Shown: positions 297 through 20,028, counted from the first letter of the stretch. The stretch is 64,000 bases of DNA from a virus (IMGVR_UViG_3300031539_000009:18157-82156); one strand, 5' to 3'. Notes: a model not told the origin generated them from the sequence alone. Made by a program: numbers and translations.

Positions 297-3200
297 TTAA
301 AAAGCCCGCCCGACATGGACCACGGCCTGTACGATATATGACTGTTTGTACTTGTCGCTTTTTTGTTTCTCAACTTGCATTATCACAATATCACCAGTGG
401 TCAACTTATCTTGATTTGGCTCATACAAATCGTTGAAGCAGAGCAACGAACCTACTGCGCCGCCGCCCGGACCCGTCAAGGTCAGAAAAGCCATCATGCC
501 ATTCTTGGCCTCATGCCGCTTGCAATCGGTCACCATTCCATATATCAACGCCTCAGCCCCGTGTGCTGTTTTGGCCAGCCGCTTGAACGGATTTGCCTTG
601 ACCAGTTTTTCACCTTTTTCCTTCCATTCCTCCACCAGCTGATCCCTTTCAGACGGTCCCAAATGTATGGCATCCCTGGCTTCCCTTTCCCCTTCCGACA
701 CCATCAAATCAACAGCAATGCGACTGTAACGCTCCAATGGGTCCTCAAAAAAGTACATCTCATATGGATTCAGGCCTGACCGCTCTGGCTTTCCTTCCGC
801 CGTCGCCGTCGCAATCTTGTTCTCAACATCGTCCAGATCAGCCATGAACTGTACACGCATCGTCTTGGACTTAGCAAACAACGACACCTTCATGGCCACG
901 CACGTCCCGATTCCCTTTTCAATAATGGGCCTGAACTCATCGAACTTATCAATGTCCAGCTTAATCCTCCAATGGACATGCGTCTCATCCTGGACGTTGA
1001 AATTGCTGTACCTCTTTTTCCAACCAATCCGGTCCTTTTCCGCCTGATCCGGCTCTGTGGTGTGGAAGTCACCGACCTGGTTGAAGCGGACATCGATGAT
1101 TTGCCCTCTGATGAACGCATCGCCACCATCCCAAGGCAATTGATCCAATGGGCTGAATTTGATGTGCGGACCGAACTGATCCAACAGGTCATCGTACAAC
1201 TCAACCGGATGCTTGTCCATTGGAAGCGGGCACACATCTATCGACATGCGCACCAGCATCTCTGGTGTGAAATCTTCTTCACTGGCCGACTGGGCCAGCA
1301 CCTTATCAACGCTGTCATATTCGTGTTTGTCGCAGTACTTCAGAAGTGTCTCGACATTCTCCAAAAAAAACTTGACGTTGGGAATCAAACCGGTGAACGC
1401 CCCGGCCTTGACTAACATCTCAACGGACCGCTTGTTCACATATGACTTTCCCACCCGCTTCCTGAAATTGCCGAATGAGGTGAACTCGCCATCCTTGTCC
1501 CGCTCCAACTCAATTTTTTCGATTCCCTTATTGGTCACCCACTTGATCTTATTCAAAGCAAATATGATCCGGCTCTTGCTATCTATCCTGAAGTGTTTGT
1601 TGCTGTGATTAATGTGGGGTTTGATAATCTCCACCCCCAGCCTTTCCGCTTCCTGTATAGTCCTGGCCGCTGTTTCTGAATCAGGCTCATGCTTGAGTAA
1701 AGCCCACATGAATTCCACAGGATAGTACACTTTGAGCCACATCTCCCAATAAGCAATGGCCGCATATGCGACTGCGTGCGATTTGTTAAAGCCATATGAA
1801 CCAAAGAATACAATGGAGTCAAACAGCTTCGCCGCCTTTCCCTTTTCCATCCCGATCTTGGCCGCCCCCTCCATGAATCGGTCCTTTTCCTTGGTTATGA
1901 CTTCCACGCCCGCCTTTTTGGCAATATCCTTCCTGAGTGAGTCAGCCGTTCCAGGCTCATATCCGCCGATCTGCTTAAAAATCTGAATGACCTGCTCCTG
2001 GTACACGATGACGCCATATGTCGGCCCGGTAATGGCATCATATGCTGGGTGTATTTTTTCCCACTTCGCCCCGTTTTTGCGCTCCACATACTTGGTCGCC
2101 AGACCGGACCTTGCTGTGCCCGGCCTGTTCAACGCATTCATGGCGGCCACGTCCTCAAATGAGTCAAATGTAATCGCTTCAGCCAGGTTGAACATCGATG
2201 TCGTGTCATACTGGAATATCCCAGCAAACTGTCTGTCTGTGAACGATTTGAACACCTTGTCATCGTCCATCGGCATCCCTTCCAGATCAATTTCCTTCCC
2301 GTGTCGCCGCTTAATTTCACCCAGACAGTCCCCGACCACGGACAGGTTGCGCAACCCCAAAACATCCAACTTGAGCAACCCAAAATCTGTGCACCCCCAA
2401 AAATCCACTGCTGTACAGGGTGTGACCGCCTTGTCTGTTTTCTGTACCTCCATCGGAACAATGGTGGACAGTTTCCTGGGTCCAATCACAACCCCGGCTG
2501 CGTGGACCCCTTTCTGGCGTGCCTGTCCTTCCAAAGACATCACCAGTGGCAATATTTCAGGGTGTCTGGCGTTAAACTCCTGGCACACCTTAAACTCTTT
2601 GAATGAATCCTGAACGGTCTGGCTGGCCCGCTCATCGCCGGATGACCTCTCAACAATGCTGTTGGTGACCTGCGCCACCTCATTCATGTGTATTTTATGG
2701 ACCCTGGAGACATCCCTCAGACATTGCTTCCCTTTCAATGTTCCCACGGTCCCGATCAATGAAGTGTTTTCCGCCCCATACCTATCAATCAAATAATCAA
2801 TGACTTCTTGGCGCCGAACGTCCTCAAAATCCATATCAATATCAGGCATGTCTATCCGGCCCGGACTCATGAACCTTTCAAACAACAATTCATGCTCCAC
2901 CGGGTCAACCGATGTGATGCCCAACAAGAATGACACCAAACATCCCGCCGCCGAACCACGACCAGGACCAACTACCATTTCCTGTTTCCGCACCCACTTG
3001 TAAAGATCATGGACAATCAGGAAATATCGCTCAAACTTGCTTCCCAAAATTGCCCTCATTTCCATTGACACCCGCTCTGAATATATCCTGATGGCATCCT
3101 CATAGCTGATGTGACGATTCCTGGCCAGTCGCCTGGCACGCTCTGGCACGTTGCGCCACGCCCAGCCATCCTTACACAACTGAAATATGTATTGCTTTTC

Positions 3201-4190
3201 CGTCAATCCGGCTGGCACCTCAACGTCCGGCAGAATACAGGCGAACTTGTCCAGCTTTAAGTCCACATTACAACGCTCAGATAGTTGGACGGAATTGTCC
3301 ATCATCTCGAACATGTCACCCTTTTCTATCCACGGGTGATATCTGCGGACTGCCCCCATCATTTCCTTGGGAGTGCGAAACCAAAAATCATGGGTGTCAA
3401 ATTTGAAACGATTGGGGTCATCTAAGGTCTGTTTGAATTGAAGGCACATCAGGACTTCTTGCTGCAACCAATCATCCGGCCTGAGATAATGAACATCATT
3501 GGTCAGGATGGGCTTGAACCCGAACTGCTTGGCCATTTTCAAGATATACTGATTGGACTCATCCTGGCCATCTATTTCGTTGGGCATCACCTCGCCATAC
3601 ACTCGATCAGGCCCAAAAATATCCAACAACTTTTTCAGGTGCCTGGCCGCTTTCCGGTGATCGCCCTCCAGGAATGGCTTGCTGAGTATTCCGCCAACGC
3701 ACGCCGTCCCGACCATTATGCCCTCTTGATGCTTTTCCAAAACTTCCCAATCAACTCTGGGCCTATTGCGATACAAGCCAGTGAGCCAACCTTCCGATGT
3801 CAGCTGGAATAGATTGCTCAATCCTGTTTCGTTCATGGCCCAAGCGCACAAATGCCATGTCTCGCTGATTCCCAATTCCCTTTCCCTGTCCTTCACCCAC
3901 TTGCGCCGCTGCCCTGAAGGAATGTCTTGCGCCAACGCTTTTTCCTCTTCAGGCAACGCTGTCTTGCGCCGGTCGCCGGTGACATACAGTTCACAACCAT
4001 AAACCGGCTTCACGCCCGCCCCTTTGGCTGCCTTGTGGAACCTGTAAACACCACGCATTGATCCGTGGTCGGTCATCGCCACCCTTTCGTGACCAGCTTC
4101 TTTGGCCCGCTCCATAAGATCGGTGACCCGGCCCACACCGTCTAACAGGCTGAACTCGGTGTGTAGGTGGGCATGGAAGTGATATGGCAT
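297..4190 (-). CDS. dnaE: DNA polymerase III alpha subunit (family C)
   Basis: PHP motifs HLHTEFSLLDG, TDHG and TNDVHY; GPGRGSAAG; catalytic PDIDMDF; HAAGVVI; KLDVLGL; YQEQ; YGFNKSHA; C-terminal OB-like segments. No intein visible. Confidence 0.97.
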   Translation of the reverse strand: MPYHFHAHLHTEFSLLDGVGRVTDLMERAKEAGHERVAMTDHGSMRGVYRFHKAAKGAGVKPVYGCELYVTGDRRKTALPEEEKALAQDIPSGQRRKWVKDRERELGISETWHLCAWAMNETGLSNLFQLTSEGWLTGLYRNRPRVDWEVLEKHQEGIMVGTACVGGILSKPFLEGDHRKAARHLKKLLDIFGPDRVYGEVMPNEIDGQDESNQYILKMAKQFGFKPILTNDVHYLRPDDWLQQEVLMCLQFKQTLDDPNRFKFDTHDFWFRTPKEMMGAVRRYHPWIEKGDMFEMMDNSVQLSERCNVDLKLDKFACILPDVEVPAGLTEKQYIFQLCKDGWAWRNVPERARRLARNRHISYEDAIRIYSERVSMEMRAILGSKFERYFLIVHDLYKWVRKQEMVVGPGRGSAAGCLVSFLLGITSVDPVEHELLFERFMSPGRIDMPDIDMDFEDVRRQEVIDYLIDRYGAENTSLIGTVGTLKGKQCLRDVSRVHKIHMNEVAQVTNSIVERSSGDERASQTVQDSFKEFKVCQEFNARHPEILPLVMSLEGQARQKGVHAAGVVIGPRKLSTIVPMEVQKTDKAVTPCTAVDFWGCTDFGLLKLDVLGLRNLSVVGDCLGEIKRRHGKEIDLEGMPMDDDKVFKSFTDRQFAGIFQYDTTSMFNLAEAITFDSFEDVAAMNALNRPGTARSGLATKYVERKNGAKWEKIHPAYDAITGPTYGVIVYQEQVIQIFKQIGGYEPGTADSLRKDIAKKAGVEVITKEKDRFMEGAAKIGMEKGKAAKLFDSIVFFGSYGFNKSHAVAYAAIAYWEMWLKVYYPVEFMWALLKHEPDSETAARTIQEAERLGVEIIKPHINHSNKHFRIDSKSRIIFALNKIKWVTNKGIEKIELERDKDGEFTSFGNFRKRVGKSYVNKRSVEMLVKAGAFTGLIPNVKFFLENVETLLKYCDKHEYDSVDKVLAQSASEEDFTPEMLVRMSIDVCPLPMDKHPVELYDDLLDQFGPHIKFSPLDQLPWDGGDAFIRGQIIDVRFNQVGDFHTTEPDQAEKDRIGWKKRYSNFNVQDETHVHWRIKLDIDKFDEFRPIIEKGIGTCVAMKVSLFAKSKTMRVQFMADLDDVENKIATATAEGKPERSGLNPYEMYFFEDPLERYSRIAVDLMVSEGEREARDAIHLGPSERDQLVEEWKEKGEKLVKANPFKRLAKTAHGAEALIYGMVTDCKRHEAKNGMMAFLTLTGPGGGAVGSLLCFNDLYEPNQDKLTTGDIVIMQVEKQKSDKYKQSYIVQAVVHVGRAF

Positions 4191-4193
4191 TTT

Positions 4194-4676
4194 TTACCTC
4201 TCATCATTGGGCAATCTCGGAAAGTATTTCAAAACGTCCTTGAACGCTTTCAGACTATGGCCAAACAACTTAACTGATTGCCCCAGTTTCTGGGCTGCTT
4301 GGACGTCAAATGGGGTGAACAACGCATCCCTGATTTCAGTGTCCGTGAACCCATTTTCTGCATGTTTGTTTATATGGAATCCGATGACCTCTTTCAACTC
4401 AGCTGGATACGCACCATGAAGAATGTATATCAAATAGTTGATCCCCTCAGCCGTCCTGGCCAGGCGTGATACCAGCTTCCCCTTGTGCGGACCGAACTTC
4501 AACCTGGCATCCGGCAGACCGCCATCGTGCGGCAGAATAACTGTGTGCTGGTCGTGAAGATCAGCCTCAACCTGCGTTGCTTCCTGTTCCGCTTCCGTCT
4601 CAATCGTGGGCGCAATTCCATCCTGGGAATTCCCGCCCCTTTGAAACATTTCCCTGATTTTGTCTTTTGTGCTCAT
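4194..4676 (-). CDS. hypothetical protein with an FGxHKG (DUF3820-like) motif
   Basis: LKFGPHKGKLVSRL...YLIYI motif. Start moved to MSTKDK. Confidence 0.6.
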   Translation of the reverse strand: MSTKDKIREMFQRGGNSQDGIAPTIETEAEQEATQVEADLHDQHTVILPHDGGLPDARLKFGPHKGKLVSRLARTAEGINYLIYILHGAYPAELKEVIGFHINKHAENGFTDTEIRDALFTPFDVQAAQKLGQSVKLFGHSLKAFKDVLKYFPRLPNDER

Positions 4677-5235
4677 CAATGAACCTCTTGGCAACCTCCA
4701 AAGTCACTGTTGGCCCATACCCGCTGGTGTCAATGCTCAACTTTGGAATTCGATTAACCATGCCACATGTCCGATCTAATTGGGTGGCCACATGCCACCA
4801 ATCTTTTTCATCCTCCAACGGGAATTTTTCATGCTTGCAACGCTTCTTTGAATCCTCATAGCAACAGCCCAAATACAAGTACACGACCGGACCGCCGCCC
4901 TGCAAAAGACTTTCCTGCCAAACATCCATCCACGACTTTATCCGTGGATCATTTTCATCAAATTCACCGTACAACGAACCATAAGCAATCGCTGAGGGCA
5001 AGGACCGATCCAAAATCACATTCCTTCCAACCTGCCCCAGCACCTCTGCCACGAGAACATCCTCAATGTAACTATTCACAGGAATGCCAATTTGGCGCAT
5101 CCCTTCCACAATCTCGTTGAAATTCCGTCCGGCCCGCCGGAATGATCGGAACACAGGCCAACGTGTCCGCCTTTCCAGCTGCTCGCAAAGACTTGTCTTG
5201 CCCGATCCATTGATGCCCTCAGCAATTACTATCAT
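4600..5235 (-). CDS. deoxynucleotide monophosphate kinase (thymidylate-kinase-like P-loop)
   Basis: N-terminal IVIAEGINGSGKTS P-loop and the ILDRSLPS (DR) motif typical of TMK/dNK. Confidence 0.85.
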   Translation of the reverse strand: MIVIAEGINGSGKTSLCEQLERRTRWPVFRSFRRAGRNFNEIVEGMRQIGIPVNSYIEDVLVAEVLGQVGRNVILDRSLPSAIAYGSLYGEFDENDPRIKSWMDVWQESLLQGGGPVVYLYLGCCYEDSKKRCKHEKFPLEDEKDWWHVATQLDRTCGMVNRIPKLSIDTSGYGPTVTLEVAKRFIDEHKRQNQGNVSKGREFPGWNCAHD

Positions 5236-5248
5236 GGCCGCTTCCCCC

Positions 5249-6436
5249 TTATTTCAGGAAGCTGTTGTGGGTGTCCAGGATTGCTTTCAGGCCATCCTGC
5301 AACTCCAACGGTGATATGTTGAGCGGTGGGGTGATCTTGATCTGTCCCTTTGGTCTGAACGTGGCGATGAGCAGACCGAACTCCCTGGCCCGCTCTGCGA
5401 ACTGATAACCATCATATCCAAAGCTGTCGAACCTTGGCAAAATTCCCCAGTGGACTCCCACGCCATCGATGGTCTCAATCCAATCCTGGGCTGTGAAAAA
5501 ATCCTCCATGATTTTGCTTGTGTCTCGAATGTGCTGCAGCCCGCCGTCCTCAAGCCAATCCAATAAAATCAAATTGGCCTCACAAACAAACGGACCGCCG
5601 CCGAATGTGGTGTAATGCGTCCTGGGCGCCAACGTCCCGGAACACTTGGGAGTGGCCAAACAAGCTGACATCGGATAACCCAACGCAATTCCTTTTCCCA
5701 AGGTCAAAACATCAGGTTGAATCCCAAAATATTCCCCGGCTGTGTACGTCCCGGTCCTGCCCATCCCCACCTGGACCTCATCGAATATGAGCAAGATGTC
5801 ATGGGTGTCGCAGAATTCACGGACCTCTTTCAACAGCCCTTCCCGATGCAGACGAACCTCATTGTTGCCCGATATGGGCGACATGAAAATGGCAGCCACG
5901 TCACCAGGCACCAGGTCGCTCAATTCCTTGAAGAATGTGAACCCGGTTGGCATCGGTCCAAATCCTTCTTTGTGATATGGTGAATCCCTGGAATCCGTCG
6001 CCGCCAAAGACCAACCGGTGCGACCTGCAAACTGCCCCTCAATCGAAGCAATTATGCACTTGTCATTCCCTTTGTCGTGCTGATATTTGCGGGCCAGCTT
6101 GATGGCTGTCTCGTTGGCTTCCGTCCCGGAATTAGCAAAAAACACCTTGTCCATTCCCGTGACTCGGCACAACCTTTCTGCGCACTCCCATCTGGTAGGG
6201 TGCGGCAGCATGTCTGCCAGCTGGTGCGGCTTTCCGGCTTCAAGGAAATTGGTCAGCCGATTTATGACCATCTGATTGCCATACCCCAACGATATTGTCC
6301 CGACATCAGCGCACATGTCAATGAATTCATGGCCATCCTCTGTGTATAGTTTGGCCCCTTCCCCGCCACCGATCACCAATGGCAACCGATTTATGGTGGG
6401 CATCAGGTGCCCGTCCATTTGCCTTTCATCCATCAT
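5249..6436 (-). CDS. class-III PLP-dependent aminotransferase (ArgD/OAT-like, divergent)
   Basis: FFANSGTEANETAIKLAR, LLIFDEVQVGMGRTG, PDVLTLGKG (PLP lysine) and TTFGG. The start overlaps the ThyX stop (ATGA). Confidence 0.92.
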   Translation of the reverse strand: MMDERQMDGHLMPTINRLPLVIGGGEGAKLYTEDGHEFIDMCADVGTISLGYGNQMVINRLTNFLEAGKPHQLADMLPHPTRWECAERLCRVTGMDKVFFANSGTEANETAIKLARKYQHDKGNDKCIIASIEGQFAGRTGWSLAATDSRDSPYHKEGFGPMPTGFTFFKELSDLVPGDVAAIFMSPISGNNEVRLHREGLLKEVREFCDTHDILLIFDEVQVGMGRTGTYTAGEYFGIQPDVLTLGKGIALGYPMSACLATPKCSGTLAPRTHYTTFGGGPFVCEANLILLDWLEDGGLQHIRDTSKIMEDFFTAQDWIETIDGVGVHWGILPRFDSFGYDGYQFAERAREFGLLIATFRPKGQIKITPPLNISPLELQDGLKAILDTHNSFLK

Positions 6437-7380
6437 CTCACTTTCACCCCCGTCCAAGGATCACGCCCCCAATATTCACGATATTCACCCACACGCTGCT
6501 TGCCCATGGGGTTGTAATCCCGCTCCACTTCAGCCGGATCAAGACCGGCCACCAATTTGGCGTACATCGGGCAAACTGGCAAAGCATCCTCACCCGTCAC
6601 ACGCCTTTCATTTTCGTGCTCGAATTTGCAGCCGCCGAACTCTTCATTGCAGATGCACGGTGGCGTGGCCATTTCTGAGAATATCGGGTGAACCTTGGTG
6701 GCGCACTCTTTGATCATCCCCCGGATAACCGGCCCCCACAACCCCAGCTGAAGTATCCAACACGACCTTTTGCCCACGATATGGAGCATGCTGTTGACGT
6801 TCATCGTCCAACTGATCCGGTGCTGCGCCCCCAACGGAATCAGGTCACGGGCATCTTCCATAGGCACGCCCGCTTCCACCAGCCTGTTGTACATATCCTG
6901 AATCCTCTTCATGGTGTCGCCATATTCACGATACAGGTCAGGCCTGGTCTTGCCTAACTGGCGGATGGTGTTGGCCTTGCGATACATTCCCTGGTCTGCG
7001 AACGTCCCCATGTTCTGAATCCGCATCGACTGGCTCCAATAGCTGGAACTGACCAAATCAGGAATGAGGTCAACTCCGATGCGGTCATCATGCTTGTGCC
7101 CGACTCGGTGACGGACCGCTTGCTCACGCCAACTGACGCTCACGCCCTCCATCATGAAGTTGAAATAAATGGACTCACTGACCGGAATGTTCTGGGCCAC
7201 GACCTTCCTGAACAATTCCAGCAACCCATCGTCACCCATGGGGTCATCCGGGTCACGCTTCCCGGCCTTCACTTCATCCACCGTCAACAGCGGATTTTCA
7301 GACTTGCTTGCCCACCAGATTATGTACAGTGTCTCCAGCGGGTCATTTGTGTTACTGATCAATCTCACCCTTGGTTCCAT
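6433..7380 (-). CDS. thyX: ThyX-like flavin-dependent thymidylate synthase homologue (divergent)
   Basis: EGVSVSWREQAVRHR...SQSMR and GVPMEDARDLIP...TMN...KRSC. The RHRx7S motif is interrupted by an insertion. Confidence 0.8.
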   Translation of the reverse strand: MEPRVRLISNTNDPLETLYIIWWASKSENPLLTVDEVKAGKRDPDDPMGDDGLLELFRKVVAQNIPVSESIYFNFMMEGVSVSWREQAVRHRVGHKHDDRIGVDLIPDLVSSSYWSQSMRIQNMGTFADQGMYRKANTIRQLGKTRPDLYREYGDTMKRIQDMYNRLVEAGVPMEDARDLIPLGAQHRISWTMNVNSMLHIVGKRSCWILQLGLWGPVIRGMIKECATKVHPIFSEMATPPCICNEEFGGCKFEHENERRVTGEDALPVCPMYAKLVAGLDPAEVERDYNPMGKQRVGEYREYWGRDPWTGVKVR

Positions 7381-7401
7381 TTTGATACCTCCATTTGATT
7401 A

Positions 7402-8295
7402 TTACAGGCCAAGCCTGTTCAAGACTTCGCCCCAGTTTGTGACCGGCTCCAAACAATCGTGCGGTGCTAAATTGTCTGAAATCGGACTCTTGAAATACAA
7501 CACCTTTATTCCGTCCCCGGCCAAGTCCAACGCATGCTTTGGGTCATCCTCGATGAATCCCACGACCTTAGCAGGGTGGATGTTTTCCCAGACTGCCCCG
7601 GACTTGTCCCTGGACCACAGCACCTGATCCGGCTTGATCCCATGTTTGTCCAACCAGAAGTGGGTGTCTGTGGCAATCCTGCGCACTTTCCAATATGGCC
7701 TGGCCGTTATCACCACCAACTTGTTTCCTGCCTCTTTGATGGCTCGGAGTGCTCCAACCGCCCCGTCAATCAGCCCTGTTTCTCTGAATCGCCCCTCTTG
7801 ATAAAATGCCATCACAGCCACTTCCCGATCTGCCTGGGACAACTCTTTGTATCCTTTTCCGGCCCGTCCCAAACAAAACATGTCAAATTGGGCAAAAAAA
7901 TCGGCCACCACTCCATCCAGGTCAGTGACCACAACCGGTGTCGATTCCTTCAACTCCATCAATTCAGCTTGCCAACGCTGATCGACCAGGTTTGACTTCT
8001 CAAAAAATGCCATCAAGAATTGCTTGTGGGTGATCCCTATGGCCTGGGCAATCGCCATGGTGTATTTGAACACGTCTGCGCACTGGTCCAAGGCATTCCC
8101 ATCGATGTCCGGGCACGCCTTCAATTGATGGTGTTTCGGTATCAATTCCCGCTTCAATTCAGTGACCTCTTCAAACAGGCCCAAAAGCAGGTCGGATAGC
8201 AGCCTGTGCCGCTCTGCTTCCGTCATGGAATCCGGGTTGATCCCTAACTTTTTTTGTTGCTCCGCTTGCCTTGCCCAAACTTTACCAAATTCCAT
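7402..8295 (-). CDS. all-alpha NTP pyrophosphatase (dimeric dUTPase/MazG-like) fused to a HAD 5'-nucleotidase-like domain
   Basis: N-terminal GLFEEVTEL...DQCADVFKY...EKSNLVDQRW; C-terminal HAD motifs DLDGVVADF, ITARP, K and IEDDP. Start moved to MEFGK. Confidence 0.8.
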   Translation of the reverse strand: MEFGKVWARQAEQQKKLGINPDSMTEAERHRLLSDLLLGLFEEVTELKRELIPKHHQLKACPDIDGNALDQCADVFKYTMAIAQAIGITHKQFLMAFFEKSNLVDQRWQAELMELKESTPVVVTDLDGVVADFFAQFDMFCLGRAGKGYKELSQADREVAVMAFYQEGRFRETGLIDGAVGALRAIKEAGNKLVVITARPYWKVRRIATDTHFWLDKHGIKPDQVLWSRDKSGAVWENIHPAKVVGFIEDDPKHALDLAGDGIKVLYFKSPISDNLAPHDCLEPVTNWGEVLNRLGL

Positions 8296-9238
8296 CACAC
8301 CACCTTCCGACCTTTTCTGCCACAACGTCTGTTGTTTCCCTTGAGTCCCAAGCAGCATATCTGCCAATGGGAATCACGCCTTCAGGATATTCCAGCCCCT
8401 CATCGCAACCGATGATATGACCCTTGATCCTTCCCTGTTTACTTATTCTCATTCCAATGCCAAGGACATGAATCACATCTTTGGCAACCGCTTCCGACTG
8501 GTCACTGTCGTCAACCCCATGAGGTTGTGGCACTTCAGCCCAAAACGATCTTTGTTGCAAGTTGTAGCTGATCCTGGACACCACTTTCTGCGCTGGTGTG
8601 TAAATGTAATCCGGCCCGGCCCACTTCTGATTCCCATTCCACGTCACCTCATACAAGGCAATATTCCCGTTGCGCAGATCAGGAAAGTCAAGACCGCCGA
8701 TGGCGGCAAAAACGCTGGCGTGAGCCGATGTAAATAACATGTCATAATTGAAATTGCCAGATTTTGTTTTTATGGCATGCTCTGTGTGATCGACTTCCAC
8801 AACCATGTCGGTACACAACCTGACCCCTTCAAGTGCTGCCTTGCTCAATTCTGATGGATTTATAACCATAGACTTGGAATGGTCTTTGCCAGGATCATTC
8901 ATACACTTGGCAGTCCAGCCATCTAATGTCCCCCTGGTCTTGGCATAGTGCATCCGTTGAATCTTCTCAGCACGGTCCCGGACCCGGCCCATCATTTCTG
9001 GATATGGCAATATTTTCCCGGCCCAATATATTCCGCCGTGAATTTCCTTGAAATCAACATTGACTCCGTGATGGCACAAAGTTGCCAGGAAGTGCCTGGA
9101 CCAATGAAAGTATTTCAGCCCGCCTTTGAAAAAATCGCCGGTGTCAGGACCGATGGCCGTGACCTGGTGTCCGAACCTCTTCAAAACCAATGATGCCACC
9201 TGGCCACTCACACCCGTCCCGATTATTACGCAATTCAT
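8282..9238 (-). CDS. FAD/NAD-dependent oxidoreductase (UDP-galactopyranose-mutase/HemY-like fold)
   Basis: Rossmann VIIGTGVSG at the N-terminus and IGRYAAW at the C-terminus. Confidence 0.75.
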   Translation of the reverse strand: MNCVIIGTGVSGQVASLVLKRFGHQVTAIGPDTGDFFKGGLKYFHWSRHFLATLCHHGVNVDFKEIHGGIYWAGKILPYPEMMGRVRDRAEKIQRMHYAKTRGTLDGWTAKCMNDPGKDHSKSMVINPSELSKAALEGVRLCTDMVVEVDHTEHAIKTKSGNFNYDMLFTSAHASVFAAIGGLDFPDLRNGNIALYEVTWNGNQKWAGPDYIYTPAQKVVSRISYNLQQRSFWAEVPQPHGVDDSDQSEAVAKDVIHVLGIGMRISKQGRIKGHIIGCDEGLEYPEGVIPIGRYAAWDSRETTDVVAEKVGRWCDGIW

Positions 9239-9250
9239 GTGTGCTTTCCT

Positions 9251-9350
9251 TGCATTCTATTTTGCATGTATGAATTCAACCTTTTCAAACCCTTATGCAC
9301 TAACAACTGCATTCATTTTTTGCGCATTTTTGAATGCATTCCTTACTGCA
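9251..9350. promoter_or_regulatory. three TGCA-N8-TGCA boxes upstream of the nucleotide-metabolism operon
   Basis: TGCA pairs start at 9251/9263, 9296/9308 and 9335/9347. 9262-9336 is also a near copy of 19940-20014. Confidence 0.7.
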
Positions 9351-9363
9351 AAAACGTGTGTGT

Positions 9364-9407
9364 AAAAAGGGCCAGCACCCTGGTGTTGATCCTGGATGCT
9401 GGCCCTT
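9364..9407 (-). terminator. Rho-independent terminator ending the early region
   Basis: On the minus strand: AAGGGCCAGCATCC, loop, GGGTGCTGGCCCTT (14-bp stem with one G:U), then a T run, just after the stop at 9432. Confidence 0.8.
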
Positions 9408-9431: not shown

Positions 9432-10487
9432 TTACTTTTTGCCCTTTTTCTTGGCCGCCGGTTTGGCCGCCGGTTTGGCCGCCGGTTTGGCCGCCGGTTT
9501 GGCTTCCGCTTTGGCCGCCGGTTTGGCTTTGGCCGCCGGTTTGGCTTTGGCCGCCGGTTTGGCCGCCGCCTTTTTCACCGGTGGTGTCGGTGAATCGACC
9601 ATGCTGATGTCGATGGATTTGGCCTTGACCATAGCAGCGATGTCGTTGGCCAGCTTTTCCTCATCCTTGGCCTCCAGGTCAATGACAGCGTGGGTGAACC
9701 AGCCATCCTTCCATTCCTTCTGGTTCCATGACTTCTTGGGCTGCCCGGCAACCTGAACGTCCATCTTGTCCATCCTGGTTTTGGGCCTGAAAGCGCAAAT
9801 GGTCCGGTCCCTTCCCTTGGGCGTTTTGAAGTACAGGCTGCAATACCCGGAAGGCAGCAAACGATCATGCAAATACAGCTGCCCCGCCTCAGCCTCATCC
9901 TTGGACGGTTTGACCTCGGTGCCCATCGAATTGGCAATGATTCCGGCCATGGCATGAATCCTGGGCATCATCACTTCCATCCGCTCTTGTCGCACGTTTT
10001 TCTTGGGTGGCTCAGGTTCAGCTTCCCCGGCCTCATCGCCGTCGCCGGAATCCTCGGTGGCCTCATCGCCGTCGCCGGAATCCTCGGCATCACCTTCCCC
10101 GGCCTCATCGCCGTCGCCGGAATCCTCGGTGGCCTCATCGGTGGCACCCTCTGCTGCCTCAGTTTCCTCAGTGGTGTCCTCGGTGGCATCCGATTCCTCG
10201 GTGGCATCCGTGGCATCCTCGGTGTCTTCTTCAACGCTTTCCGGCTCATCCTCGGTGGTGCCTTCCAGAATTGCCTTGCCCTTTTTCACGACCTCAGACA
10301 AATCCTGCTCGCCTACCCAATCGGGCAGCTGCGCATCAGACACGCCATCGGACAGGGCCACCGCTTTGACGGCCATGCAGTTGTCACGGAATCCGCACGG
10401 CTTTTCATCGGTCGCCGGATTGCCATCACATTCGTCACCAACCTCATGCATCCCTGCGCAAGCTGGCACTTTTTTCTCATCACTCAT
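9432..10487 (-). CDS. acidic low-complexity protein with an N-terminal 4-Cys motif and a histone-H1-like AAKP tail
   Basis: EDSGDGDEA repeats and a C-terminal (AAKP)n KKKGKK tail; GGAGG RBS. Confidence 0.75.
   Translation of the reverse strand: MSDEKKVPACAGMHEVGDECDGNPATDEKPCGFRDNCMAVKAVALSDGVSDAQLPDWVGEQDLSEVVKKGKAILEGTTEDEPESVEEDTEDATDATEESDATEDTTEETEAAEGATDEATEDSGDGDEAGEGDAEDSGDGDEATEDSGDGDEAGEAEPEPPKKNVRQERMEVMMPRIHAMAGIIANSMGTEVKPSKDEAEAGQLYLHDRLLPSGYCSLYFKTPKGRDRTICAFRPKTRMDKMDVQVAGQPKKSWNQKEWKDGWFTHAVIDLEAKDEEKLANDIAAMVKAKSIDISMVDSPTPPVKKAAAKPAAKAKPAAKAKPAAKAEAKPAAKPAAKPAAKPAAKKKGKK
9451..9570. repeat. 12/18-bp coding tandem repeat (AAKP / AAKAKP)
   Basis: Repeated ggtttggccgcc units. 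Confidence 0.9.
10024..10145. repeat. coding tandem repeat (EDSGDGDEA)
   Basis: Three copies of gcctcatcgccgtcgccggaatcctcgg. Confidence 0.9.
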
Positions 10488-12441: not shown

Positions 12442-14478
12442 TTAGGCCATGAGGTATTTTATGATCATCTTGAAAAGCTTGGCCGGAAGATCACCCACGC
12501 TGTTGACCACGTCCCAGTCAGGGTAAAAATTCCGCACGTGATCGGTCTGAATTCCCAGCCCATAAACCTCGATGCCCGCATCAGATATTTCCTTGACCAC
12601 GTCCCTGGTGGCCTGATACTGCTTGTAATTGTCCCCAATGCTGACGTTGGGCTTTCCGTCGCTGAGGACTATCATGATCTTGCGGTGCTGGGGTTGAGCC
12701 GCCAGCCGCTTTGCCGTGTGCATGATCGCTTCTGAATCAACGTTGCAGCCGTTGGTGTCCATCATCGCAATCCTGGTCTTCACAGTGGCATTGAACTTTT
12801 CCCCGAACGCCTTGTGGGTGTAGTGGGTGATCCCAACAAATCTGTTGTAATATTTCATTTCCTCTTTGGGCTCATCCCACGCACTATATCCGGCCCGATA
12901 AGTGTGATGTCCGCAAATCTCGAAAGGAATGTTCAGGCCATTCAACGCTTCCGCAATCGCTATCATCCCGACCTTGGCGTGTCCAATCCTGTTATCACGA
13001 CCGCTCATGGACCCGCTCTGGTCAACCAGGATGCTCACGGCCACGTCCAACTTCTGTCCTGGCATCGTCTTGGTGAACACTCTTTTGTTTCCGGTCTTGG
13101 TGCTGTAAAGTGTGGAAGGATCAATTTGACCATTTTCCTGGTCGCCCACCCGGACCGCCTGAGCCTTGACCTTGAGCAGCGTGGTGAGTCTGGCCTTGAG
13201 TGCTCCGGTGGCCTTTCCCGCTTCCGTTTTGAGTCTGCTGTAGTGGTCCAGGGCTGCGCTGTCTGATGAGGTGTGGGTGCGAACGTCCCACTTGTCCCGG
13301 TCCAAAACCTTGGGTGAGGGGATGTGATCGTTGCTGCGCTTGGCCAACTCCATCGCCTTGGTCTTCAGTTCATCTTTGATCTTCTGCTTGAGATCGGTCT
13401 CAGTGGGCTTGGGCTGCTCTTTTTCCGCTTGCTCCAAGATGTCCAGTGCTTCCTGAGTGGCCTGGGGCATCCCATTCCCGCTGGCACCGCTCTCATCGCT
13501 GTTGGGATTTGAGGTGAAATCTTCATCGGTCCCCTTCCCCTTGCCGCTTCCGTCCTGGTCGCCGCCCATATCATCGCCATCGTGCTCTGCGGACAATCCG
13601 GCATCAACACCCTGGTCGCCGTCCTGCTCCTGCTCGGTGTCCTGCTCGGTGTCCTGGTCGCCGTCCTGGTCGCCGTCCTGGTCCTGGTCGCCGTCCTGGT
13701 CCGCTTCCCCTTTGCCGTCCTGGTCCTGGTCGCCGTCCTGGTCCTGGTCGCCGTCCTGGTCCTGGTCGCCGTCCTGGCCTTGTTCGTCTTGCTCGGTGTT
13801 TCCCTGTTCCTTGTCGCCCTGCTCCTGGTCGCCGCTTCCCTGATTCTGCCCCAACTCATCCTTGGCATCACTCAGTCTGCCCAAGATGTCAGTGACCAGC
13901 TGGTCAACGTCCGCCGGTGCCTCAACGGTTTTGGCCCGCTCTATTTCCGGCTGAATTTTGTCCAAGATCAGGTTGTATGACTCAGGAAGCCAGGAAGTGG
14001 ATCTGCCGGTGGCCCGGAAGGAAAGCCCAATGGCGATGATGTAGTTGGGGTTGGCCTGTCCTGGATTGGCGCTTAATTCTTTGACCAAATCGCTGGTGAG
14101 CCTATCATTCATGGTGTCCAGGTTGGTGGCCACTCCCGGATAACGTGCGCTGAGGCTGCGCTCTATTCTGGTGTCCTCGATGGCGTTGAAAAACACTTTG
14201 TATTTGGGGGTGGCCGCTCTCATGTAGTCTAATGGGGTGCGCTGTCCCTGGGCTTTCCAAATTTCCTCTTGCTCGATGTGGCCCCACTCGTGATCCAACA
14301 GACCTTCCATGACCGCCTGATCCGCCCCTTTGAACTTGTCTGCGTTGGCAGGAAGGTAGATGGTGGCCCCGTCAGTGGCGCAATTCAGCGTCTGGGTGTT
14401 GACGTGGACCGTGGCCCGCTTGCTGAACGTCCGGGCGATTTTTTCCCACTTGCTTTCCATGGTTCTTTTTGCTTTCAT
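12442..14478 (-). CDS. CobT-like vWA-domain protein
   Basis: N-terminal ATDG...LDHEWGH...NAIEDTRIE; acidic linker; MIDAS DQSGSM and SDGKP. Start moved to MKAK, downstream of the promoter and RBS. Confidence 0.88.
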   Translation of the reverse strand: MKAKRTMESKWEKIARTFSKRATVHVNTQTLNCATDGATIYLPANADKFKGADQAVMEGLLDHEWGHIEQEEIWKAQGQRTPLDYMRAATPKYKVFFNAIEDTRIERSLSARYPGVATNLDTMNDRLTSDLVKELSANPGQANPNYIIAIGLSFRATGRSTSWLPESYNLILDKIQPEIERAKTVEAPADVDQLVTDILGRLSDAKDELGQNQGSGDQEQGDKEQGNTEQDEQGQDGDQDQDGDQDQDGDQDQDGKGEADQDGDQDQDGDQDGDQDTEQDTEQEQDGDQGVDAGLSAEHDGDDMGGDQDGSGKGKGTDEDFTSNPNSDESGASGNGMPQATQEALDILEQAEKEQPKPTETDLKQKIKDELKTKAMELAKRSNDHIPSPKVLDRDKWDVRTHTSSDSAALDHYSRLKTEAGKATGALKARLTTLLKVKAQAVRVGDQENGQIDPSTLYSTKTGNKRVFTKTMPGQKLDVAVSILVDQSGSMSGRDNRIGHAKVGMIAIAEALNGLNIPFEICGHHTYRAGYSAWDEPKEEMKYYNRFVGITHYTHKAFGEKFNATVKTRIAMMDTNGCNVDSEAIMHTAKRLAAQPQHRKIMIVLSDGKPNVSIGDNYKQYQATRDVVKEISDAGIEVYGLGIQTDHVRNFYPDWDVVNSVGDLPAKLFKMIIKYLMA
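13612..13778. repeat. coding tandem repeat (DQDGDQ)n in the CobT-like linker
   Basis: Repeated gtcgccgtcctggtcctg units. Confidence 0.9.
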
Positions 14479-14518
14479 TTTCGTGTCCCCTTTTGTGTTT
14501 TTTCCGGCCATGTTTAAT

Positions 14519-14547
14519 ATCATAGCTGATCTTGAATGAAAAGGCAA
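14519..14547 (-). promoter_or_regulatory. sigma70-type early promoter for the cobT-like gene
   Basis: TTGCCT-17 nt-TATGAT on the minus strand, with A/T tracts upstream. Confidence 0.8.
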
Positions 14548-14652
14548 GAAAAAAAACACCCAAGGTCCAAACTTTTTTTACAATATCCATAAATCCAACA
14601 AGTTACAAGACAACTTTTTTTTGGTGTAGCCCGGTCTTTTAATAGGCCAAAA
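14523..14652. repeat. approx. 130-bp dispersed repeat, copy 1 (promoter module)
   Basis: Closely similar to 15968-16097. Confidence 0.9.
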
Positions 14653-14735
14653 CGTCGAAAGGACCAAAAACCACTTAACTTGTTGATTTTACTTAACATT
14701 TTCAATTCCCCATAAAATCAAGGACTTAGGGTGCT

Positions 14736-15914: not shown

Positions 15915-15963
15915 TTCGCTTCCCACTTTTGATTTGTATTTGGTTTTTTCGACCATGTATACA

Positions 15964-15992
15964 AGTATAGCTGATCTTGAATGGAAAGGCAA
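15964..15992 (-). promoter_or_regulatory. sigma70-type early promoter for the cobS-like gene
   Basis: TTGCCT-17 nt-TATACT. Confidence 0.8.
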
Positions 15993-16097
15993 GAAAAAAA
16001 TCGCCCAAGGACCAAACTTTTTTTACAAGATCCATAAAAACAATCATTTACTGGGCAACTTTTTTTTGGTGTAGACCGGCTTTTCAAAAAGGCAAAA
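15968..16097. repeat. approx. 130-bp dispersed repeat, copy 2
   Basis: Closely similar to 14523-14652. Confidence 0.9.
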
Positions 16098-16272
16098 GGT
16101 AAAAAGGGCCAAAATTGGCTTCCGGTGTGGATAGGTAGTGGGGTTTGTTTTTTGTGTCTAAACAGAATATTGCCGAATGGCTTGAAATTAAATACTTTTT
16201 TGTGAAAATTTGGTGTCATTATCACCGATTCCTTTTGATTATTGTCGGCCCGATTATGCGGACCAATTTTAC

Positions 16273-19939: not shown

Positions 19940-20028
19940 TTGCATCGATGAATTCAAACTTTTCAGTCACTTATGCATACGCAACTGCACTCATTTTTTG
20001 TCCATTTTTGAATGTGATAACGTATGCA
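19940..20028. promoter_or_regulatory. approx. 75-bp repeat with a TGCA-N8-TGCA box upstream of the loader/helicase operon
   Basis: 19940-20014 aligns without gaps to 9262-9336; TGCA pair at 19974/19986. Confidence 0.7.

Follow-up and report, generated by a model that had tools for sequence, protein, structure and literature searches.

Whether a phage can build a modified thymidine from a thymidylate synthase of the ThyX type and a class-III aminotransferase is the question raised by one locus of an uncultured soil virus. The window studied here is the whole stretch of 64,000 nucleotides (nt), which corresponds to bases 18157-82156 of an 82,156-bp IMG/VR virus record (IMGVR_UViG_3300031539_000009), estimated to be 79% complete. 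Statements on genes absent from the genome cover this 82-kb record only, and the missing fifth of the genome may differ. At positions 297-9238, genes for five enzymes (a flavoprotein, a MazG-HAD fusion, a divergent ThyX-like enzyme, a class-III aminotransferase and a P-loop kinase) lie directly upstream of a DnaE-type DNA polymerase gene. The original prediction, made from the sequence of the window, had proposed an undescribed base-modification pathway for this set, here called the cassette. Our own reading is tentative and falls a little short of being called probable: the cassette would encode a nucleotide-level pathway from dUMP to a C5-modified, amine-bearing thymidine analogue, with the nucleotide pool biased towards the analogue.

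The elements of the cassette are given below in window coordinates and in the order of transcription.

9364-9405, minus strand: terminator-like hairpin, GGGCCAGCA ... TGCTGGCCC then TTTTT, read directly from the sequence just past the stop of orf351
9262-9336, minus strand: 75-nt TGCA-rich regulatory repeat (repeat family D7), the core of the AT-rich stretch after the hairpin
8282-9238, minus strand: flavoprotein, 318 amino acids (aa), from its GxGxxG motif, alignment, AlphaFold and Foldseek
7402-8367, minus strand: MazG/HAD (NT5C) fusion, from Pfam NT5C, alignment and PDB profile search
6433-7380, minus strand: ThyX-like enzyme, 315 aa, from Pfam Thy1; 21-nt gap after the fusion gene
5249-6457, minus strand: class-III aminotransferase, from Pfam Aminotran_3
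4600-5235, minus strand: P-loop kinase, 211 aa, from PHROG 761; 13-nt gap after the aminotransferase gene
4194-4694, minus strand: small open reading frame (ORF) orf166, 166 aa, function unassigned, between kinase and DnaE and overlapping the 3' end of the kinase gene
297-4190, minus strand: DnaE-type DNA polymerase III alpha subunit with PHP, NTPase, finger and HhH domains; 3-nt gap after orf166

The spacing of successive genes from the flavoprotein to DnaE was -14, +21, -4, +13, about -80 and +3 nt. The true start of the fusion gene is likely the invariant Met25 at 8295, which gives the 14-nt overlap with the flavoprotein gene. Similarly, the aminotransferase likely starts at the ATG at 6436, overlapping the ThyX-like gene by 4 nt, and this start matches the 395-aa database form P0126. 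The hairpin was omitted by a simple hairpin scan because its loop is longer than the scan permits. A second copy of the 75-nt repeat, 83% identical, was located at 19940-20014, upstream of the helicase-loader operon. The layout agreed with the earlier description of co-oriented genes with overlapping or near-abutting ends, which begin behind their own regulatory repeat just after a terminator and run into the phage DNA polymerase: all the named genes are present and coupled, and DnaE follows directly. The cassette also contains one conserved gene not listed in that description, orf166, which has homologues at the same position in L005/L013, L014 and L027 and no family match in Pfam, PHROG and NCBIfam scans.

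The conservation of this set was examined by three IMG/VR scans, with the ThyX-like protein, its alignment and the flavoprotein alignment, which yielded about 50 contigs. The gene content of these relatives was read by tblastn of the window proteins. In 25 of these contigs, which represent about 20 lineages once near-duplicates are removed, the five enzymes lie directly upstream of DnaE at 25-86% amino-acid identity, and five further contigs end inside the cassette. The gene-neighbourhood search that had been suggested as a check was therefore favourable, with the linkage of ThyX, aminotransferase and kinase conserved across these contigs. The gene order was permuted among the relatives: the aminotransferase stands before or after ThyX, and ThyX comes last in one contig (L064). 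In another (L045), a very divergent FAD protein occupies the place of the flavoprotein. Because identities spread from 25 to 86% and the order is permuted, selection on the linkage is indicated rather than shared descent of one block, and a neighbourhood kept through such divergence and rearrangement is strong evidence of a shared function. Moreover, some relatives carry inserted genes in the cassette: a protein of about 260 aa with weak S-adenosylmethionine (SAM)-methyltransferase signatures in five contigs, a 471-aa NAD-dependent epimerase/dehydratase (SDR) in one contig, and a second class-III aminotransferase in one contig.

The cassette is carried by soil phages of about 100 kb that form an uncultured group, and the full five-enzyme set was found in no cultured phage. 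The cassette had no blastn match among 50,697 GenBank phage records, and neither the kinase nor the flavoprotein had a tblastn match among them. Parts of the set were found in other genomes. A complete phage of 101 kb with terminal repeats (G002, also L036) has the ThyX-like, aminotransferase and kinase genes adjacent to one another, with a MazG-HAD fusion 25 kb away and no flavoprotein. In a second complete phage (G001), the flavoprotein adjoins DnaE, the ThyX is different, and neither the aminotransferase nor the MazG-HAD fusion is present. In addition, Streptomyces phage Lizz has a short flavoprotein relative beside a HAD phosphatase upstream of DnaE, with a ThyX nearby and without an aminotransferase. 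The aminotransferase and the flavoprotein are thus independent additions, and an obligate chain from ThyX through the flavoprotein to the transaminase is unsupported. The original prediction had proposed such a chain, in which a C1 unit added by ThyX is oxidised by the flavoprotein and then transaminated. That part was not borne out, since the first of these genomes, compared with the second, Lizz and the Pbunaviruses described below, shows the two enzymes to be separable. Across about 20 lineages, the aminotransferase itself was hardly ever seen away from this ThyX subfamily.

The ThyX-like enzyme is the sole thymidylate-synthase-like gene of the 82-kb record, in which neither ThyA (PF00303) nor a trimeric dUTPase was found. 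It scored 69.4 bits against Pfam Thy1 (PF02511), above the cut-off of 24.8, and 56 bits against TIGR02170, below the equivalog cut-off of 87.9. Its AlphaFold model (pLDDT 89.4) matched the ThyX of T. maritima and M. tuberculosis in Foldseek, with TMt values of 0.60-0.68. The nucleotide-binding residues RHR...S.R, R188 and R205 are kept, and by our own mapping these Arg and Ser residues would correspond to the dUMP binders of solved ThyX. The contiguous ThyX motif RHRx7S(x)R(Y) is absent: an insert of about 20 residues separates RHR from S.WSQSMR, and the Tyr following the Arg is replaced by Ile or Val. Furthermore, four cysteines (C207, C242, C251 and C270) are invariant in a 50-sequence alignment, and a C-terminal extension is present. 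The enzyme has more than 400 metagenomic homologues, and its clade profile reaches solved ThyX structures only at E 1e-4. Because of the score below the TIGR02170 cut-off, the split motif and the distant profile match, a role as dTMP synthase is not established, and the enzyme represents a distinct subfamily.

Distant members of the four-Cys clade (31-39% identity) occur without the aminotransferase, and the subfamily predates its association with that enzyme. In three contigs (L046, L048 and L049), the ThyX-like gene sits behind a YfbR-type HD 5'-deoxynucleotidase and a nucleoside-deoxyribosyltransferase-like protein. Judged by these neighbourhoods, the subfamily is repeatedly paired with enzymes that would destroy deoxynucleoside monophosphates (dNMPs) and that have unrelated folds, namely NT5C-HAD and YfbR-type HD. 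Two further members have other neighbours. One adjoins a GT8-like glycosyltransferase (L047:5919-6860; a weak match, E 3e-4), and the other lies directly behind a radical SAM/SPASM enzyme (L037:1224-2327). These may represent further, different modification pathways based on this ThyX subfamily.

The aminotransferase matched PF00202 (Aminotran_3) with E 8e-67. The catalytic Lys (K255), the pyridoxal phosphate (PLP)-binding D226 and the carboxylate-binding R368 are invariant in 11 phage sequences. The best NCBIfam match was argD (TIGR00707) with 267 bits against a cut-off of 410, so the protein falls outside the ArgD equivalog, and all 69 of its 69 NCBIfam matches were below their own cut-offs. 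The QGE 'switch' motif is replaced by GNN, which is invariant across the phage clade. Class-III transaminases act on terminal aldehydes and amines. The possibility that the aminotransferase and the flavoprotein form a reductive pyrimidine-catabolism pair was rejected, as no dihydropyrimidinase or ureidopropionase was detected in any Pfam scan of the record.

The flavoprotein has an N-terminal GxGxxG Rossmann motif, a GG motif and a two-domain fold. In Pfam it matched only Pyr_redox_2, with E 0.008. Its AlphaFold model, built from an eight-sequence alignment (pLDDT 81.7), matched UDP-galactopyranose mutase (UGM), protoporphyrinogen oxidase (PPO), amine oxidases and renalase in Foldseek with probability 1.0, TMq 0.6-0.7 and 10-16% identity, and the ESM Atlas gave a TM of 0.8 to Amino_oxidase/NAD_binding_8 clusters. 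By its motifs and modelled fold, the protein belongs to the amine-oxidase/UGM/PPO superfamily. An exhaustive profile search returned 536 cluster representatives, nearly all of them stand-alone proteins of 310-350 aa. When fused 'Rosetta stone' forms were sought, two longer proteins (P0294 and P0364) were found, without an informative extra domain. A basic KTR motif (K100 and R102) and a C-terminal GRxAxW motif are nearly invariant in the family, and the conserved basic residues may form a phosphate-binding site. The structural neighbours include UGM and 'LPS biosynthesis' flavoproteins acting on sugar nucleotides. Proteins with this fold typically catalyse C-N or C-C oxidation or UGM-type chemistry, and not the oxidation of alcohols. 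Typical flavin alcohol oxidases belong to GMC or VAO type families. The proposal that the flavoprotein oxidises the C1 unit to a carbonyl therefore fits poorly with an amine-oxidase/UGM/PPO fold, which is not that of a typical alcohol oxidase.

The kinase carries a Walker A motif and the DR..S..AY motif (LDRSxPSAIAY) of thymidylate and deoxynucleoside kinases. It matched PHROG 761 'thymidylate kinase' with E 3e-19, and it scored below the cut-offs of Pfam Thymidylate_kin (25.2 bits against 27) and TIGR00041 (30.9 against 83). In a PDB profile search, the best solved match was SPbeta YorR (2axp), followed by dNK and TMPK. Assignment as a 5-hydroxymethyl-dU (5-hmdU) DNA kinase was rejected, since the TMPK/dNK motif DR..S..AY is present and the similarity to phage M6 gp54 is limited to the P-loop.

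The fusion protein is predicted to combine a MazG-like all-alpha nucleoside triphosphate (NTP) pyrophosphohydrolase with a HAD 5'(3')-deoxyribonucleotidase. The C-terminal part scored 32.1 bits against NT5C (PF06941), above the cut-off of 24.8, and its best solved relatives are the human cytosolic and mitochondrial 5'(3')-deoxyribonucleotidases cdN and mdN. Invariant residues include D149 and D151 of the DxD motif, K255 and E273/D274. The N-terminal part had no Pfam match. It carries the metal-binding signature ExxE...ExxD with conserved EEVxEL and ExxVDVLKY, and its clade profile found small nucleotide pyrophosphohydrolases (5ie9, 2q73 and 2gta) with E 2e-4 to 2e-3.

The DnaE of the window is, by its sequence, the presumed replicative polymerase of the phage. 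Its nearest cultured relatives are the DnaE proteins of Streptomyces phages, at about 33% identity. In several related phages (L006:11092-15804, L009:9829-14589 and L064:13955-18550), DnaE is about 1570-1590 aa long, and an insertion of about 270 aa, located after residue ~800, interrupts the tblastn match to the 1297-aa protein of the window. This insertion is probably an intein or a homing element.

The cassette was compared with known phage modification systems. T-even phages, which contain 5-hydroxymethylcytosine (5-hmC), and SPO1, SP8 and phi-e, which contain 5-hmdU, are known to combine a homologue of thymidylate synthase that acts on a dNMP with a dedicated dNMP kinase, their own polymerase and a hydrolase that removes the canonical nucleotide, and their sets likewise include dCMP deaminase. 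The original prediction had likened the locus to such sets for base replacement before replication, and the likeness held: the synthase homologue, the dNMP kinase, the enzyme degrading dNTP and dNMP and the polymerase are all present, so that the cassette has the gene architecture of a pre-replicative set of the T4/SPO1 type, known here from its genes. However, the T-even and SPO1-type phages use ThyA-type enzymes, whereas the cassette has a ThyX-type enzyme and no ThyA. They also lack a transaminase or flavoprotein step, and only the cassette has the pyrophosphatase and nucleotidase fused. To our knowledge, all characterised pyrimidine modification pathways start from ThyA-type enzymes. Literature searches on ThyX and aminotransferase in phage DNA modification returned no description of this set; the combination of ThyX with a class-III transaminase is thus undescribed in the searched literature, and the genetic logic is otherwise of the known T4/SPO1 kind.

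Post-replicative thymidine hypermodification has been described in phages M6, ViI, SP10, PhiW-14 and PaMx11 (Lee et al. 2018 and 2021, PMC8989533). Its defining enzymes are a dUMP hydroxymethylase of the ThyA type, a 5-hmdU DNA kinase (5-HMUDK) and an amino-acid:DNA transferase (AADT, or aGPT-Pplase); in PaMx11, 5-aminomethyl-dU is an intermediate, and the tailoring enzymes vary combinatorially between lineages (PMC8989533). The cassette resembles these systems in its PLP and flavin enzymes and combinatorial tailoring, and amine-bearing C5 products are proposed for it. Furthermore, the dUMP hydroxymethylase gene of M6 has an HD hydrolase gene as its neighbour and lies close to those of the polymerase and a dCMP deaminase, and the pairing in the cassette is similar. 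In contrast, the PLP enzymes of the post-replicative systems are decarboxylases and their flavoprotein is MnmC-like, whereas the cassette has a class-III transaminase and a flavoprotein of the amine-oxidase/UGM fold. A tblastn search with M6 gp51, gp52, gp53, gp54 and gp58 against the 82-kb record gave only a 16-residue P-loop match (E 0.67). Because none of the defining enzymes has a homologue there, the cassette is not a member of the family of Lee et al. This bore out the expectation that known thymidine hypermodification would differ, as no homologue of the M6 AADT, 5-HMUDK, PLP decarboxylase, radical SAM enzyme or ThyA-type hydroxymethylase was found.

A chemical precedent exists in neomycin and butirosin biosynthesis, in which paromamine 6'-oxidase and the class-III neamine transaminase convert CH2OH to CH2NH2. 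This is the same chemistry as was originally proposed for 5-hydroxymethyl-dUMP, with the difference that the substrate is an aminoglycoside and not a nucleotide. In addition, paromamine 6'-oxidase belongs to the GMC family, whereas the flavoprotein of the cassette has the amine-oxidase/UGM fold.

A link to cultured phages was provided by the Pbunaviruses. The ThyX of the Pseudomonas phage Epa14 (gp70), which belongs to the same genus as PB1, F8 and 14-1, matched the clade profile with an hhalign probability of 98.9% (E 3e-17) and has four Cys. Epa14 gp76 (L097:6626-7627), annotated as 'hypothetical protein', matched the 43-sequence flavoprotein profile over 270 columns with a probability of 96.4% (E 1e-9), and the match includes the C-terminal GRxAxW motif. 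Epa14 gp68, which carries a HAD phosphatase domain of the PNKP type, precedes a proofreading exonuclease and a DnaE-type polymerase (gp66). No ThyA-type gene was found in Epa14, and no class-III aminotransferase, MazG domain or TMPK-like kinase was detected in it. The Pbunaviruses therefore share with the cassette the Cys-bearing ThyX subfamily, the flavoprotein family, a HAD phosphatase and DnaE in one block, and the lack of ThyA. They differ in that the HAD domain is of the PNKP type and not NT5C, that the genes occupy about 5 kb, interrupted by small ORFs, and that the reported adducts are sugar-like and not amines.

According to a 2025 preprint, the virion DNA of the Pbunaviruses F8 and 14-1, long thought to be unmodified, resists restriction enzymes with TG-containing sites, and new nucleosides of 362 and 390 Da replace about one quarter of its thymidine; according to the same preprint, standard gene-based prediction would miss this modification, and the genes responsible are unknown (doi 10.1101/2025.03.31.646159). 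By our own arithmetic, the two masses would correspond to 5-hmdU (258) joined through oxygen to a tetritol (122) or a pentose (150) with loss of water. If this reading is right, a phage with a ThyX-type enzyme alone makes 5-hmdU, and the four-Cys ThyX subfamily would be the prime candidate for a dUMP hydroxymethylase. Likewise, gp76 is a candidate gene for the Pbunavirus thymidine derivatives. This assignment of Pbunavirus genes to the modification of that genus is inferred here and is not a published result. The shared ThyX and flavoprotein families, together with the modified DNA of these phages, raise the odds that the cassette contains a thymidine-modification core.

In the pathway proposed here, dUMP would be supplied by dCMP deaminase, which the phage encodes about 11 kb outside the window. 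The Cys-rich ThyX-like enzyme would attach a one-carbon unit, taken from a folate/flavin adduct, at C5 of dUMP and stop short of the normal reduction to dTMP, leaving a substituent at the hydroxymethyl or formyl level. The ArgD-like omega-transaminase may then convert the carbonyl of this substituent to a primary amine, for example giving 5-aminomethyl-dUMP or a longer amine-bearing chain, and in most lineages the amine-oxidase/UGM-fold flavoprotein would assist it. The product would be phosphorylated by the thymidylate-kinase-like enzyme and incorporated by the co-transcribed DnaE. Meanwhile, the MazG-NT5C fusion would degrade the competing canonical nucleotide, taking dTTP or dUTP to the monophosphate and further to the nucleoside. 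The lineage-specific inserts (SAM-methyltransferase-like protein, SDR epimerase/dehydratase and second aminotransferase) may tailor the side chain further. It may well be that only part of the T is replaced. A nucleotide-level pathway is suggested because three of the enzymes are typical of free-nucleotide metabolism and the DNA-acting AADT and 5-HMUDK are absent. A wider form of this proposal is somewhat unlikely: the four-Cys ThyX would be a flavin-dependent dUMP C5 hydroxymethylase or formylase that founds a large and so far unrecognised family of pathways for thymidine modification including the Pbunavirus route, and in the soil phages the transaminase would complete a wholly pre-replicative route to an amine-bearing dNTP such as 5-aminomethyl-dUTP, to be incorporated by DnaE.

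Several observations weigh against the nucleotide-level pathway. The support consists of genes, the phage being uncultured and represented by assembled contigs alone. The flavoprotein and the aminotransferase are separable across genomes, hence sequential action is not required, and the flavoprotein fold, that of amine oxidases, UGM and PPO, is unlike that of typical alcohol oxidases. The aminotransferase is about equidistant from bacterial ArgD (34-37% identity) and from its phage relatives (38-42%); because it is no further from ArgD than from these relatives, its substrate could be an ordinary amino acid or polyamine. The SPbeta prophage likewise combines an NT5C-type nucleotidase with a dNK-like kinase (YorS/YorR), and we know of no modified bases there. 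The Pbunavirus modification is partial and TG-specific, which suggests a step at the DNA level for which no obvious gene is seen in the cassette. Finally, palindromes containing T are strongly avoided in the whole record (window 1-64000 and L002:1-18156), where expected counts were taken from a maximal-order Markov model: TCCGGA was observed 0 times against 35 expected, AACGTT once against 17 and AGATCT once against 15. Since these T-containing sites are still avoided, a complete and broadly protective replacement of T is doubtful. Such avoidance would be unexpected were every T bulky and protective, so that the modification, if present, is probably partial, small, or non-protective against those enzymes.

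The TG restriction and the partial extent in the Pbunaviruses, about one quarter of T, imply a sequence-reading step at the DNA level, and they argue for a post-replicative variant, a serious rival that we nevertheless consider unlikely. According to this variant, the ThyX-like enzyme and the kinase supply 5-hydroxymethyl-dUTP or a similar simple analogue, and DnaE inserts it together with dTTP; a donor (an amine, an amino sugar or a sugar alcohol) is made by the aminotransferase and the flavoprotein, neither of which acts on the nucleotide itself, and an unrecognised DNA-level transferase attaches the donor to some of the hydroxymethyl-dU, as seems to occur in the Pbunaviruses. The fit of the masses 362 and 390 to an O-linked tetritol or pentose on 5-hmdU, by our arithmetic, agrees with this, as do the ArgD-like character of the aminotransferase, the UGM and 'LPS biosynthesis' sugar-nucleotide enzymes among the neighbours of the flavoprotein, and the SDR epimerase/dehydratase and GT8-like protein in or beside the module in relatives. 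The avoidance of T-containing restriction sites is consistent with a partial modification, and the conserved ORFs orf166, orf351 and orf153 could conceal a transferase. However, no homologue of the known DNA-level transferase or DNA kinase (AADT/aGPT-Pplase and 5-HMUDK) was found in the record. Moreover, the aminotransferase stays with the ThyX-like enzyme and the kinase when the other genes move, for which a shared nucleotide substrate is the easier explanation.

It is possible but unlikely that the cassette serves ordinary nucleotide supply with canonical bases in the DNA. In that case ThyX would make dTMP and the kinase dTDP, the MazG-NT5C protein would sanitise or rebalance pools (for example of dUTP), and the flavoprotein and aminotransferase would be auxiliary metabolic genes for flavin and one-carbon supply or for arginine and polyamines used in DNA packaging. 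The dUMP-binding residues of ThyX are indeed retained, the aminotransferase is ArgD-like, and phages with canonical DNA commonly carry ThyX, TMPK-like kinases, MazG and NT5C/HD nucleotidases; the best match of the kinase is SPbeta YorR. One-carbon units can come from flavin amine oxidases (sarcosine and dimethylglycine oxidases, for example), which counts in the same direction, and the strong avoidance of restriction sites is like that of phages with unprotected DNA. Nevertheless, a nucleotidase of the dUMP/dTMP-preferring NT5C type, fused to an NTP pyrophosphatase, would be futile beside an enzyme that makes dTMP. The aminotransferase clade has lost the Glu of the 'switch' motif of ornithine and acetylornithine transaminases (QGE to GNN, invariant) and occurs essentially only beside this ThyX subfamily. 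Also against ordinary supply, the cassette carries variable inserts of tailoring-type enzymes, and cultured phages with the same ThyX subfamily and flavoprotein family have modified thymidine.

Palindromes without T were avoided as well. In the same counts, CGCG was observed once against about 201 expected, CCCGGG 0 times against 34, and GCCGGC 8 times against 50; TGCA was observed 166 times against 330. Such avoidance suggests that the phage was once heavily exposed to several type II restriction systems, and the regulatory repeats may account for most TGCA copies that survive.

Modified DNA bases influence the arms race between phages and restriction or CRISPR systems and are a source of biotechnology tools. 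If the nucleotide-level pathway is true, it would be the first route based on ThyX, with the first omega-transaminase acting on a nucleotide for DNA, and a cationic thymidine analogue acceptable to a DnaE polymerase would be made entirely at the nucleotide level. The thymidine derivatives of the Pbunaviruses, phages in therapeutic use, would then gain candidate genes as well. The Pbunavirus link offers a cultured system that makes the question of the core genes directly testable.

The cassette is located within the replication module of the phage. The stretch was found in six soil-metagenome runs, in all of them as assembled contigs, and no RNA holders were listed. The GC skew of the window is uniformly negative, and every long ORF lies on the minus strand. 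Upstream of the cassette are a UvsW-like helicase, a DnaC-like loader, DnaB, primase and CobS/CobT-like AAA+/VWA proteins, as well as a sigma-70-like factor and a repeat-rich ORF. Downstream of DnaE, partly beyond the window (locus L002), are a gp32-like SSB, RecA, a fused SbcCD, a NYN nuclease, a flap endonuclease and the dCMP deaminase. The fused protein is encoded by a single 1020-aa ORF (L002:12289-15351, in the same record outside the window), in which an SbcD-like metallophosphoesterase is joined to an SbcC/Rad50-like ATPase.

In-frame tandem repeats of 12 nt and 18 nt were found at 9439-9582 in orf351 and at 13550-13811 in the CobT-like gene. The repeat of orf351 encodes a basic Lys/Pro/Ala-rich array near the C-terminus, and that of the CobT-like gene falls within the central region. 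In addition, a direct repeat of 174 nt with 82% identity between its copies was found at 14496-14669 and 15941-16114. Its copies lie across the 5' ends of the CobT-like and CobS-like genes together with the sequence upstream of each, and they may be a shared regulatory or leader element.

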